A DNA stretch of 64,000 nucleotides from Candidatus Moraniibacteriota bacterium (GCA_963778555.1 CAVZUR010000003.1:117704-181703); one strand, 5' to 3'. Positions 13,563 through 17,549 are shown, counted from the stretch's first letter. The notes: generated by a model from the letters alone, not told the origin. Made by a program: numbers and translations.

Positions 13563-16500
13563 TTACGGAAGAGACTGTCCCATCTTCACCACCGCCCCGC
13601 CACTCCGTTCGTAGTATTCCAAGACGAGGGTGTGACTGCCCGCCGTCAAGGCCTGAGTCACCTGATAAGCCGTCGGTGGCTGGTCAATCCAATGGTCGAG
13701 GATGAGAGCACCATCCACGTAGAGCCGGACGCCGTCGTCGGCCGTAATCTCGAAAAGGTAGTTCCCCGCTATGAAGGTAGCGGTCTGTGTGAAGCGAGCC
13801 GAGAAATTATCAATCGGTACCACTCCATCAGGCGATCCGCCACCCCAGTCGAAATTGATGGCCATATCAGTGCGAGTCAGAGACGGGGTGCCCGAGAGTG
13901 TCTGGTTCGGGAAGAATTCGGAGGTGAATCCGGTGGTCGGTACAGGGGGTGGGGTGGTACCAATCTTGGCATAACTTGCCTTGGCGACCGCACCTCCGGT
14001 CCGCTCATAAAAATCCACTCGGAGCGCATGCGTACCCGCCGTCACAACGACGTCTGCGGTATGAATTGTCTCAGCATGATCGTTCCACTGATCGATAACG
14101 GAGGCGCCATCCAAAAAGACGCGGATACCGTCATCGCTTGCTGTTGTGAAACGATAGGTGCCGGCTTCGAAGGTATCGTTTTTTGTCCACTGCGCGACGA
14201 AATGGTCCACACTGACAAGGGAATTAGGTGAAATGTCTCCCCAGTCGAAATCGATGGCTGTCTCGTTTTGCGTCAAGGTCGGGGGAGTAACTGGAATTGC
14301 GGGAGCAGCTCCGGCAGCGGGCGTATTCCAATAGCTCCCTACCCAGACAGTCGAGGGAGGGGGGACAGTACCTCCAACTTTTGTAAATCCGAACTGTGCC
14401 ACCGCCCCGCCAGCATTCTCGTAATACTCCACTCGCAGAACATGACTCCCCGCTGTAAGAGAACGAGTCGTTGTATATGTTGTTGGACCCTGGTCGATCC
14501 AGTGGTCGATAACAGCGACATCATCCACATAGACCCGAATGCCATCATCCGCTGTCGCCGTAAACTCATAATCGCCGGCTGTGAAAGTTTCAGTTTTGGA
14601 CCAGCGAGCCGAGAAATTATCAATCGGTACCACTCCATCAGGCGATCCGCCACCCCAGTCGAAATTGATGGCCATATCAGTGCGAGTCAGAGACGGGGTG
14701 CCCGAGAGTGTCTGGTTCGGGAAGAATTCGGAGGTGAATCCGGTGGTCGGTACAGGTGGTGGGGTGGTACCAATCTTGGCATAACTTGCCTTGGCGACCG
14801 CACCTCCGGTCCGCTCATAAAAATCCACTCGGAGCGCATGCGTACCCGCCGTCACAACGACGTCTGCGGTATGAATTGTCTCAGCATGATCGTTCCACTG
14901 ATCGATAACGGAGGCGCCATCCAAAAAGACGCGGATACCGTCATCGCTTGCTGTTGTGAAACGATAGGTGCCGGCTTCGAAGGTATCGTTTTTTGTCCAC
15001 TGCGCGACGAAATGGTCCACACTGACAAGGGAATTAGGTGAAATGTCTCCCCAGTCGAAATCGATGGCTGTCTCGTTTTGCGTCAAGGTCGGGGGAGTAA
15101 CTGGAATTGCGGGAGCAGCTCCGGCAGCGGGCGTATTCCAATAGCTCCCTACCCAGACAGTCGAGGGAGGGGGGACAGTACCTCCAACTTTTGTAAATCC
15201 GAACTGTGCCACCGCCCCGCCAGCATTCTCGTAATACTCCACTCGCAGAACATGACTCCCCGCTGTAAGAGAACGAGTCGTTGTATATGTTGTTGGACCC
15301 TGGTCGATCCAGTGGTCGATAACAGCGACATCATCCACATAGACCCGAATGCCATCATCCGCTGTCGCCGTAAACTCATAATCGCCGGCTGTGAAAGTTT
15401 CAGTTTTGGACCAGCGAGCCGAGAAATTATCAATCGGTACCACTCCATCAGGCGATCCGCCACCCCAGTCGAAATTGATGGCCATATCAGTGCGAGTCAG
15501 AGACGGGGTGCCCGAGAGTGTCTGGTTGCTAAAATATTCCGCCGCATACCGCTGTGCTTCAGTGAAGACCGCGGTGTATGTCGTGTCGCTTTCGGGCGTG
15601 ATAAGAGTCCTTGCCTGTGCACCGCCATCGAGCCAATGATTGAACTGATAGGAAATGCCGTCCTTTGCTTGAGGTGACGGAACACCGAGCTGCCGTTCAA
15701 AACCAACAACACCCGTTATCGTCCGAGGTGCCTGATAGGGACTTCCCTCGAGACTGATGGCGAGTCCAGACGGAACAGTCTGAAACGTCATATCGCTTTT
15801 CAGTGGATAAATATTGACTGACTGCGTCGCTGACAGACCATTGGTGTCAGTCGCGGTAGTCCTGATCTCGTACCAAATATTGCTGGCTGCTTCACCACTT
15901 TTTGGAAGCCTGAACTCATTCGTTCGACCAATCAAGTTCGAGAGGAAGGGATGGATATGGGTATCGTGATGGAGCACCACATCAGTCAGAATGGCAGCAT
16001 CATTCAGGTCGTTCCCGACACCATCAATCGCTGCCGCCTGATAGCGGATGAGGTCTCCGGCACGGAACGTATCCCCATCATTGGGGGCTGCGAGCGTCAC
16101 GATTGGTGGAAAACCAACCTGAACTGCAATCGGTATCGCCTGAGCAAAATTTAGCCCGTCGCTCACAGTGAGTTGCACCGTGTAGGTTCCTTGCGCAGTA
16201 AAGACCTTAGATGGATTCGGATTGGTTGATCCCGTCCCATCGCCGAAATCCCAAGCATACGTGAGCGCATCACCGTCTGGATCGCTTGATCCAAGACTGG
16301 AGAACCCCACTGTGAGTGGCTCGATGCCTTTGACCACATCGGCGCTCGCATTCGCGATGGGCAGATGGTTATCCGTCGCATAGGTGATGCGATAAAGCCG
16401 ACCGGGAAAATATGTGACATAGTAGATTGATCCGTCCTGCGCGGTCTTCAGATCAACGACGCTTCCCGCATTCGTGTCGAAGTCAAAGACGCCGGCATTG

Positions 16501-17549
16501 TGCCCTTCGCCATCGAGATGCATATACCGGATGAAACCTTGGGCATAATCACTGAAAAAAAGCGCGCCTCGGTATGTTTCCGGAAACATAGTCCCCCGAT
16601 AAATTGGGCCGCCGGTCACCGCTGCACTCTGGCCATTGTGGTTATAGGTGTACTCCGGATCAACAAAACCAGCACAAACAGCGATGCACTCCCCCTCATG
16701 GAGAGGCCAGCCATAATTAGCTCCTTTACGAACGAGGTTGATTTCTTCCCAGGTAAAATTTCCGACATCGCCCACATAGAGCCGATCTGTCGCGCTATCG
16801 AATTGAAACCGCCAGGGATTACGGAGTCCATAGGCGAAAATCTCACCGAGCGCTCCCGGGGTGTTTACGAACGGATTATCGCTCGGGATAGTACCATCCT
16901 TATTGATGCGGAGAATCTTTCCGTGCGGATTGTCGAGCTGCTGCGCGAGCGGGGGATTACCGTTATCGCCGACCGCGAAATACAGTTTCCCATCGGTGCC
17001 GAACCGGATGCTGCCTCCGACGTGAAGTAACTCTGAGGGAAAGGCTGTCTGATAGAGGATGAAAGGGTCTTCGGTTGCGGTGTCCCCGGAGGCGTCAAAG
17101 CGAACCAGGCGGTTTAACTGATCCAGACCGGTGTAGTAGAAGTACACGTAGTGATTGGAGGAAAAGTTCGGATCAAAGGCAATGCCGATCAAGCCTCGAT
17201 CACCGGAAGCGATGGAGGGAAGCTCCACGAAAGGGGTAGGCAAAAGACTTCCGTTCTTGTAAATCTTGATGGCACCGGTCCGCTCTAGAATGAAGATGCG
17301 GCCATCCGGAGCGAATTCAAAAGCCGAAGGCCCGTCCAGTCCGGAACCAATGATCTGAGTGATCTGAAAATCTGCTGGTGGTGCGGCCTGGGCTAGGGAA
17401 ATTCCTATGAAGCAAACGCTCACAGAAAAAATCATCGCTCGAAACAGAGGGTTGATGGACGGAAGGTGCTTAAAAGAAGATTGGGACTGCATACACTGAT
17501 TACGGTGAATCATAGGAACATATTTCGATGACTCTTTGGTATAGGACAC
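13563..17549 (-). CDS. giant secreted multidomain protein: signal peptide, soluble-quinoprotein-glucose/sorbosone-dehydrogenase-like beta-propeller, PKD domain, then five PA14 domains arranged as 270-aa tandem repeats
   Basis: The N-terminus is a signal peptide. GLRNPWRFQFD with YVYFYYT marks an SGDH propeller. YAWDFGDGTGS...GTYTVQLTVSDG marks a PKD domain. The FTAGDYEFTATADDGIRVYVDDV...EYYENAGGAV pattern repeats as PA14 domains. Confidence 0.8.
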   Translation of the reverse strand: MSYTKESSKYVPMIHRNQCMQSQSSFKHLPSINPLFRAMIFSVSVCFIGISLAQAAPPADFQITQIIGSGLDGPSAFEFAPDGRIFILERTGAIKIYKNGSLLPTPFVELPSIASGDRGLIGIAFDPNFSSNHYVYFYYTGLDQLNRLVRFDASGDTATEDPFILYQTAFPSELLHVGGSIRFGTDGKLYFAVGDNGNPPLAQQLDNPHGKILRINKDGTIPSDNPFVNTPGALGEIFAYGLRNPWRFQFDSATDRLYVGDVGNFTWEEINLVRKGANYGWPLHEGECIAVCAGFVDPEYTYNHNGQSAAVTGGPIYRGTMFPETYRGALFFSDYAQGFIRYMHLDGEGHNAGVFDFDTNAGSVVDLKTAQDGSIYYVTYFPGRLYRITYATDNHLPIANASADVVKGIEPLTVGFSSLGSSDPDGDALTYAWDFGDGTGSTNPNPSKVFTAQGTYTVQLTVSDGLNFAQAIPIAVQVGFPPIVTLAAPNDGDTFRAGDLIRYQAAAIDGVGNDLNDAAILTDVVLHHDTHIHPFLSNLIGRTNEFRLPKSGEAASNIWYEIRTTATDTNGLSATQSVNIYPLKSDMTFQTVPSGLAISLEGSPYQAPRTITGVVGFERQLGVPSPQAKDGISYQFNHWLDGGAQARTLITPESDTTYTAVFTEAQRYAAEYFSNQTLSGTPSLTRTDMAINFDWGGGSPDGVVPIDNFSARWSKTETFTAGDYEFTATADDGIRVYVDDVAVIDHWIDQGPTTYTTTRSLTAGSHVLRVEYYENAGGAVAQFGFTKVGGTVPPPSTVWVGSYWNTPAAGAAPAIPVTPPTLTQNETAIDFDWGDISPNSLVSVDHFVAQWTKNDTFEAGTYRFTTASDDGIRVFLDGASVIDQWNDHAETIHTADVVVTAGTHALRVDFYERTGGAVAKASYAKIGTTPPPVPTTGFTSEFFPNQTLSGTPSLTRTDMAINFDWGGGSPDGVVPIDNFSARWSKTETFTAGDYEFTATADDGIRVYVDDVAVIDHWIDQGPTTYTTTRSLTAGSHVLRVEYYENAGGAVAQFGFTKVGGTVPPPSTVWVGSYWNTPAAGAAPAIPVTPPTLTQNETAIDFDWGDISPNSLVSVDHFVAQWTKNDTFEAGTYRFTTASDDGIRVFLDGASVIDQWNDHAETIHTADVVVTAGTHALRVDFYERTGGAVAKASYAKIGTTPPPVPTTGFTSEFFPNQTLSGTPSLTRTDMAINFDWGGGSPDGVVPIDNFSARFTQTATFIAGNYLFEITADDGVRLYVDGALILDHWIDQPPTAYQVTQALTAGSHTLVLEYYERSGGAVVKMGQSLP
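13786..15528. repeat. tandem direct repeat, unit 810 bp, about 2.15 copies, essentially identical at DNA level (encodes the 270-aa double-PA14 repeat)
   Basis: Byproduct ORFs 13771..13974 and 14581..14784 are identical, as are 14339..14653 and 15149..15463, each pair offset by exactly 810 bp. Confidence 0.85.

Follow-up and report, generated by a model that had tools for sequence, protein, structure and literature searches.

How a single coding sequence comes to hold two almost perfect copies of a 925-nucleotide (nt) segment, and how many copies it truly has, is the question raised by a gene for a predicted secreted protein of 1328 amino acids (aa) in Candidatus Moraniibacteriota. The gene was studied in a stretch of 64,000 nt (the window, GCA_963778555.1 CAVZUR010000003.1:117704-181703), and its product consists of a signal peptide, a glucose/sorbosone dehydrogenase-like (GSDH) beta-propeller, a PKD domain, two immunoglobulin (Ig)-like domains and five PA14 domains, with the repeat located in the PA14 part. 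The explanation that we favour as a whole, with moderate confidence, is that this is a five-PA14 Moraniibacteriota gene with units that were recently homogenised, and with an inferred glycan-related function. The repeat is best read as the homogenisation of an existing five-domain array, which fits the data better than net expansion of the array.

Comparison of the sequence with itself at an offset of 810 nt showed that 13793–14717 and 14603–15527 match over 925 nt with a single mismatch (G at 13947 vs T at 14757), which is synonymous (CCC/CCA, Pro), and a match of this length cannot have arisen by chance. The complete periodic region measures 1735 nt (13793–15527), corresponding to 2.14 units, in which the 115 nt that open the A-type PA14 domain are present three times (15413–15527, 14603–14717 and 13793–13907) and the remaining 695 nt twice, a layout that can be written as h-U-h-U-h. 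At the protein level, aa 675–982 are identical to aa 945–1252. The fifth PA14 domain begins with 45 aa (1208–1252) identical to the third domain, with aa 1215–1252 of these (38 aa) also identical to the first domain and the remainder diverged, and identity at the 810-nt offset falls abruptly in the flanks, to 57% inside the last PA14 domain and to 28% beyond the first. The near-exact 810-nt periodicity described in an earlier note on this DNA is real, its limits of 13786–15528 being essentially right when compared with those measured here, and the very recent event that the note had placed behind the repeat is supported by the 925 nt with one synonymous mismatch. Tandem Repeats Finder reported nothing, but it covers periods of up to 500 nt and so has no bearing on a repeat of 810 nt. 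Three plus-strand open reading frames (ORFs) opposite the PA14 repeats (13632–14231, 14268–15041 and 15078–15677) recur because the underlying DNA is repeated; they mirror the coding sequence on the other strand and were rejected as genes.

Of the candidates scored in a search covering 5.8 billion proteins, 6586 matched at E ≤1e-10, and the homologue counts given below refer to the best 120 of these 6586 matches. The 120 homologues have 47–65% identity to the window protein with 86–99% query coverage, are approximately 1150–1760 aa in length and share the same full-length layout, and the named full-length members came from Dactylosporangium, Micromonospora, Rugosimonospora, Lentzea and two Patescibacteria metagenome-assembled genomes. 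Among the matches listed, a scan of species-representative genomes gave full-length copies in Actinomycetota, as well as relatives from many phyla combining GSDH and PKD with other modules, and profile scans of genomes and metagenomes gave mostly distant GSDH-only relatives. Database names for the family were either 'PA14 domain-containing protein' or 'glucose/arabinose dehydrogenase', and a literature search on PA14 with sorbosone dehydrogenase, Patescibacteria or pyrroloquinoline quinone (PQQ) found no study of the family. The protein is therefore a member of a widespread, already annotated and experimentally uncharacterised family, and its architecture is not special to episymbionts, with free-living Actinomycetota carrying the same full-length protein at approximately 50% identity. 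For a protein of approximately 1300 aa, this level of full-length identity is high for phyla as distant as Patescibacteria and Actinomycetota, which suggests that the family was shared between them by horizontal transfer.

The number of PA14 domains, counted with a hidden Markov model (HMM) built from the window protein's own PA14 domains, was five in 80/120 homologues, six in 35/120 and four in 5/120, and no homologue among the 120 had three or seven. Any two PA14 domains of a single homologue are typically 45–70% identical, with the window protein being the extreme at 100%. The closest relative (P0002, on contig L001) has 65% identity to the window protein and also contains five PA14 domains, which are 48–72% alike, and no 150-nt segment of its gene is repeated at more than 79% DNA identity. 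Contig L001 is syntenic with the window (tRNA cluster, GT2 and GT39 glycosyltransferase genes, the PA14 gene and a 3D-domain gene), which makes P0002 the orthologue, and since this syntenic orthologue also carries five PA14 domains, five is the ancestral number at this locus. The earlier view of a gene 'assembled from' growing repeats was not borne out, as five is both the modal count and that of the orthologue.

The history of the array was approached with a neighbour-joining tree of the PA14 domains of the window protein, its orthologue and five actinobacterial proteins. Domains of the actinobacterial proteins grouped strictly by position (all first domains, all second domains, etc.), whereas domains 1, 3 and 5 of the window protein grouped together, as did its domains 2 and 4, and in the orthologue the pairs 2/4 and 3/5 were formed inside its own protein. 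Similarly, in best-match counts the domains of the actinobacterial proteins P0036 and P0054 matched their own position 58–73 times out of 78, and the first domain of the window protein matched a first domain once in 79. We read this pattern as the signature of concerted evolution, which would have taken place independently in two Moraniibacteriota genes, with strict positional orthology in the Actinomycetota. The B-type domain of the window protein is 68% identical to domain 4 of the orthologue and 57% to domain 2, and the A-type domain is 57–60% identical to domain 3 and 54–55% to domain 1; since the B-type domain is nearer to domain 4 than to domain 2 and the A-type domain slightly nearer to domain 3 than to domain 1, the copying seems to have run from the second unit to the first.

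Homogenisation would have involved unit 1 (domains 1–2 and the start of 3) and unit 2 (domains 3–4 and the start of 5), which were probably made identical very recently by homologous recombination, either through gene conversion or through a deletion-and-reduplication cycle of unequal crossing-over, with the count staying at five. The second unit would be the probable donor, overwriting the first, and the outcome would be two 925-nt direct repeats spaced 810 nt apart, a potential substrate for further recombination. Exact patches were also detected in genes at two other loci, L166 (338 nt at an offset of 405, gene positions 3169–3506) and L167 (approximately 150 nt at an offset of 840, gene positions about 2450–2600), and both are shorter than the repeat period; the L166 patch, for this reason, did not originate from tandem duplication. 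Both patches appear to be signatures of gene conversion between PA14 repeats, independent of the window gene.

The alternative that survives best, although we consider it unlikely, is a recent true tandem duplication which took the gene from three to five PA14 domains by unequal crossing-over between two identical 115-nt segments, located 810 nt apart where two A-type domains begin. The h-U-h-U-h layout is the one-step product of an h-U-h crossover, and the exact patch of the L167 gene gives it a precursor-like structure, but duplication requires a three-domain ancestor, whereas four is the lowest PA14 count among the 120 closest homologues and the syntenic orthologue carries five. If a prior deletion from five to three domains is added, the duplication becomes the unequal-crossover version of the homogenisation that we favour.

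It is also conceivable, but quite improbable in our view, that the repeat is real and was traversed the wrong number of times during assembly, with the true gene having three or seven PA14 domains. The exact 925-nt repeats are longer than short reads, and the inter-copy mismatch (0.11%) does not exceed the distance to a co-occurring strain: L169, a contig in Logan from run ERR11593397, matches the dnaA region of the window (40034–44966) at 99.88% identity, with 6 mismatches in 4933 nt, which means that a near-identical strain with reads exists. As the single mismatch between the copies lies within this strain-level divergence, it could be a population single-nucleotide polymorphism and is no proof that the assembly told the two copies apart. 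Neither the full-length protein nor its GT39 neighbour was present in the Logan short-read assemblies, which do contain the DnaA of the same population; for the protein, this is what a break of short-read unitigs in the repeat would produce. The exact protein also has no other record, forming a cluster of one member with none in the contig index. On the other side, the reading frame, domain boundaries and domain phase are all intact, and five matches the count of the orthologue and the mode of the family, with three or seven absent from the 120 homologues. Faced with repeats of this kind, assemblers tend to collapse them or to break, and not to add a copy, which also counts against an artefact. 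Five is thus probably the right count, as judged from the sequences compared.

The domain architecture originally proposed (signal peptide, GSDH propeller, PKD and five PA14 domains in the order A-B-A-B-A') was confirmed by Pfam and by the sequence itself, with the PA14, GSDH and PKD profiles all matching far above threshold (coordinates are given in Table 1). The GSDH match (PF07995) scored 210.8 bits against a cutoff of 25 (E 4e-62) and covered profile positions 2–331 of 332, the PKD domain scored 67.7 bits with PF18911 (cutoff 27) and 50.3 bits with PF00801 (cutoff 23.5), and PA14 (PF07691) scored 282.1 bits (cutoff 24) in five separate stretches, bounded by our own HMM at aa 668–797, 798–935, 938–1067, 1068–1205 and 1208–1327. 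The database copy of the protein (P0001, from NCBI and ENA) is 100% identical but is annotated from M13 (17513) with a length of 1316 aa. Signal peptide cleavage is predicted after a hydrophobic stretch, between AQA and APP (aa 55/56); A55, P57 and P58 are conserved across homologues, which have classic signal peptides with A-x-A ending before the same APP. For aa 471–667, Pfam and PDB sequence searches gave no match, and Foldseek with an AlphaFold2 model built on 24 homologues gave only generic pilin, FN3 and Ig-like folds. The first of the two Ig-like sandwiches contains the motif HHxxHxHPF (aa 527–535, 15945–15971 on the minus strand), which is invariant in all aligned homologues, and this histidine cluster might be a metal site. 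The protein ends with GGAVVKMGQSLP directly before the stop codon, only 7 residues past the last PA14 core, and the homologues end likewise.

Table 1. Coordinates of the repeat, the PA14 gene and its parts, and the adjoining glycosyltransferase genes (positions in the window unless a contig is named)
Feature	Position	Strand	Details
Repeat copy I	14603..15527	.	925 nt; self-comparison
Repeat copy II	13793..14717	.	925 nt; 115-nt overlap with copy I; synonymous mismatch at 13947
Coding sequence, secreted GSDH-PKD-2xIg-5xPA14 protein	13563..17549	-	1328 aa from GTG at 17549, stop codon included
AGGAGG Shine-Dalgarno-like box	17556..17561	-	6 nt upstream of GTG; read directly from sequence
N-terminal leader and Sec-type signal peptide	17385..17549	-	aa 1–55; read from sequence
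GSDH (glucose/sorbosone dehydrogenase-like) beta-propeller	16392..17336	-	aa 72–386; Pfam PF07995
PKD domain	16140..16370	-	aa 394–470; Pfam PF18911, PF00801
Two Ig-like beta-sandwich domains	15549..16139	-	aa 471–667; AlphaFold2 model, pLDDT 92.7
PA14 domain 1 (A-type)	15159..15548	-	aa 668–797; Pfam and own HMM
PA14 domain 2 (B-type)	14739..15158	-	aa 798–937; Pfam and own HMM
PA14 domain 3 (A-type)	14349..14738	-	aa 938–1067; Pfam and own HMM
PA14 domain 4 (B-type)	13929..14348	-	aa 1068–1207; Pfam and own HMM
PA14 domain 5 (A'-type)	13566..13928	-	aa 1208–1328; Pfam and own HMM
GT39/PMT_2-like polytopic membrane glycosyltransferase	17563..19161	-	532 aa; stop codon 13 nt before start of the PA14 gene
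GT2 glycosyltransferase, first gene of cluster	19142..20740	-	532 aa; weakly like cellulose synthase (CelA) and PgaC
GT39-like and GT2 upstream genes, contig L001	6684-9990		
GT39-like and GT2 upstream genes, contig L082	4156-8001		
GT39-like upstream gene, contig L084	1-1380		
GT39-like upstream gene, contig L088	103-1812		

The glycan-related part of our explanation starts from the PA14 domains, all five of which contain a DDG(-x-R) motif that was invariant across 20 homologues and that aligns, at the level of sequence, with D86–D87 of the PA14 structure 6QE7. In the RsgI3 PA14 dyad this Asp-cis-Asp (DcisD) pair holds calcium together with the loop CBL2, and RsgI PA14 dyads bind pectin or xylan through calcium (PMC6852018). 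The aligned start of CBL2 is a Glu in the window protein (YYE-NAGG, FYE-RTGG and YYE-RSGG) vs Gln or Asn in RsgI3 and RsgI4, and this Glu could also ligate calcium. Since each PA14 domain keeps the Asp-Asp calcium/sugar signature, the array probably binds polysaccharide in a multivalent manner.

The GSDH-type propeller is six-bladed, and its relatives in the PDB were 3A9G, 2G8S, 2ISM, 3DAS and 1C9U, with HHIP also among them. Residue H176 (in HVGG) is invariant in the family and falls on the H-x-GG motif of both 3A9G and 2G8S in the alignment, a catalytic role having been described for His144 in sGDH (PMC6881789), and R243-N244 is likewise invariant and aligns with the same two structures. As the propeller retains these residues, which in PQQ sugar dehydrogenases are the catalytic His and an Arg-Asn pair, it may oxidise a sugar, and catalysis is plausible, not assured.

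The PA14 gene is preceded by two glycosyltransferase genes, with the GT2 gene overlapping the start of the GT39-like gene by 20 nt and a gap of only 13 nt between the latter and the PA14 gene. A direct Pfam scan of the GT39-like protein was empty even at E 1, and its assignment thus rests on its homologues (35–43% identity), which carry PF13231 or PF02366 and have the NCBI name glycosyltransferase family 39; all of the named homologues were from Patescibacteria. Such a gene lies directly upstream of the PA14 gene in the window and in four independent Patescibacteria-like loci (L001, L082/L083, L084 and L088), with the order GT2-GT39-PA14 gene complete in the window, L001 and L082/L083, and it was absent from that place at six loci, the actinobacterial L002–L006 and L085. 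At the two loci with exact patches, the neighbours are GT2 genes, Wzy_C and a flippase (L166), or a cellulose-synthase-like GT2, GH81 and a sortase (L167). The PA14 gene is probably co-transcribed with the GT2 and GT39-like genes, which suggests a role in the bacterium's own envelope glycan or glycoprotein biology. The window protein contains Pro/Thr-rich linkers (GGTVPPPST and GTTPPPVPTTG), and the possibility that these are specific to the GT39-linked versions was rejected, since they are not clearly richer than in the actinobacterial proteins, so that the idea of glycosylation gains no support from them. A more far-reaching and speculative scenario, to which we assign little probability, is that Patescibacteria captured the family into a dedicated three-gene module (a processive GT2, a membrane GT39 and GSDH/PA14), in which GT39 would O-glycosylate the linkers, or the protein would bind and oxidise a glycan made by GT2, with the recombining PA14 units, concerted only in this lineage, reshaping the cell-contact surface.

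Several points weigh against homogenisation of a five-domain array with a glycan-related function. The repeated tract (925 nt) is longer than the period (810 nt), so that conversion and duplication alike take more than one event unless an identical 115-nt segment was already there, and because both routes share this need, one sequence cannot separate them. The inferred donor depends on identity gaps of 5–11 percentage points, the domain tree was made without bootstrap, and the PA14 copy number is known here from the assembled sequence alone. The function, in turn, is read from motifs alone. In the propeller, the R-I-R of E. coli Asd (2G8S), which belongs to the PQQ-binding region, aligns with S-V-V, albeit in a lower-confidence part of the alignment. 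In the HMMER alignment this S-V-V is followed by the invariant D366 and K368, and the lysine might take the place of the PQQ-carboxylate arginine (Arg408 of sGDH). The NCBIfam model for the PQQ dehydrogenase subfamily (TIGR03606) gave 104.4 bits vs a cutoff of 434.55, and with the R-x-R replaced and the score far below the cutoff, the propeller may bind another cofactor or none. The protein contains no C-terminal sorting signal (LPXTG) or transmembrane anchor, and a scan for promoters and terminators gave fewer promoter-like sites than shuffled sequences and none at the gene ends, which argues neither way on the operon.

That the protein is instead a non-catalytic host-attachment adhesin, with the propeller as a binding scaffold and homogenisation reflecting selection for variable display in an episymbiont, is improbable. 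In its favour, the host genome belongs to the candidate phyla radiation (CPR), yeast adhesins and RsgI sensors use PA14 domains as lectins (PMC6852018), the propeller lacks the C-terminal Arg pair that aligns with the PQQ-binding region, and the non-enzymatic HHIP is among its relatives. Against it, the same full-length protein occurs at approximately 50% identity in free-living Actinomycetota and other phyla, the catalytic His and Arg-Asn pair are invariant across the family, an anchor motif is lacking, and in the genome and metagenome collections searched by exact peptide no strain-level variant, and hence none differing in copy number, came to light. The placing of the protein 'on the surface of an episymbiont' in the earlier note was likewise not borne out, the protein having neither a sortase signal nor a C-terminal anchor.

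The assignment of the host to the CPR is supported by the DnaA protein encoded in the window, which shares 84% identity with proteins that bear the name Candidatus Moraniibacteriota. The window also carries dnaN and genes for a PilB-type ATPase, PBP1A and a class I ribonucleotide reductase. The dnaA and dnaN genes are located at 42022–44799 on the plus strand, so that the replication origin probably lies within the window, and the cumulative GC skew is lowest at approximately 46–48 kb. A stretch at 4001–6000 has a low GC content (0.379 vs approximately 0.52 elsewhere), is flanked by tRNA genes and contains a 430-aa ORF (4872–6164, minus strand) for which NCBIfam gave no match, and this stretch may be foreign DNA. 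Finally, a minus-strand cluster at 47751–53298 looks like a peptide-modification system; it comprises an ORF of 217 aa and genes for a QEGLA-motif protein, a 646-aa double RimK/ATP-grasp ligase and a fusion of alpha-L-glutamate-ligase-like and retropepsin-like parts (524 aa).

Taken together, the striking long exact repeat is best seen as ordinary concerted evolution within a common and annotated family, and short-read assemblies of this repeat region are not to be trusted without spanning reads. Two leads come from this locus: the PA14 array is concerted in the Moraniibacteriota lineage and strictly positional in Actinomycetota, and the PA14 gene is tightly linked to GT2 and GT39-like genes in Patescibacteria, which could guide work on how bacteria with small genomes build or decorate their surface.

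The yeast Flo and Epa adhesins are PA14 lectins as well, and their genes contain long, near-identical intragenic repeats which recombine and change in number, but there the repeats form a Ser/Thr-rich stalk next to a single PA14 domain, whereas the repeated unit of the window protein is itself a pair of PA14 domains. The nearest solved PA14 structures are those of RsgI3 of Clostridium thermocellum (6QE7, E 3e-32) and RsgI4 of C. clariflavum (6QDI, E 3.5e-23), with both matches mapping to residues 2–118 of the 270-aa unit, i.e. the A-type domain. Their strand 5 Asp-Asp (DcisD) aligns with the invariant DDG of the window protein, but RsgI3 and RsgI4 use two PA14 modules as the sensor domains of membrane anti-sigma factors, as opposed to an array of five. 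Their CBL2 reads QHVRA or NNTGN, compared with ENAGG, ERTGG or ERSGG in the window protein, and because of this difference the RsgI ligand is not transferable. The propeller resembles PaeASD of Pyrobaculum (3A9G/3A9H), Asd/YliI (2G8S) and Acinetobacter sGDH (1C9U) in its PF07995 fold, HxGG histidine and RN motif, while these three are single-domain proteins and their HGP...DEIN segment reads VGN...WEEIN in the window protein.

The closest likeness is with the full-length members of the family itself, such as P0036 (Dactylosporangium fulvum GCM10010399_58760), P0054 (Micromonospora rhizosphaerae), P0118 (Lentzea sp.) and P0046 (Patescibacteria MEK7570829.1), which share the complete architecture, are approximately 1280–1450 aa in length, have 47–65% identity over 95–99% of the query and contain the same invariant motifs. 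The actinobacterial members differ from the window protein in having strict positional PA14 orthology, no near-identical internal repeats and no GT39 neighbour. For the GT39-like gene, a comparison is offered by Caldicellulosiruptor bescii, in which deletion of the GT39 gene (Cbes1864) abolishes glycosylation of its secreted multidomain cellulases and destabilises them (PMC6151902). Unlike in C. bescii, glycosylation is only a lead for the window protein, and the GT39-like label was obtained via homologues, but in both bacteria the GT39 or GT39-like gene adjoins coding sequence for secreted proteins with linkers, namely multidomain, linker-rich carbohydrate-active proteins in C. bescii and the window protein with its Pro/Thr-rich linkers here.

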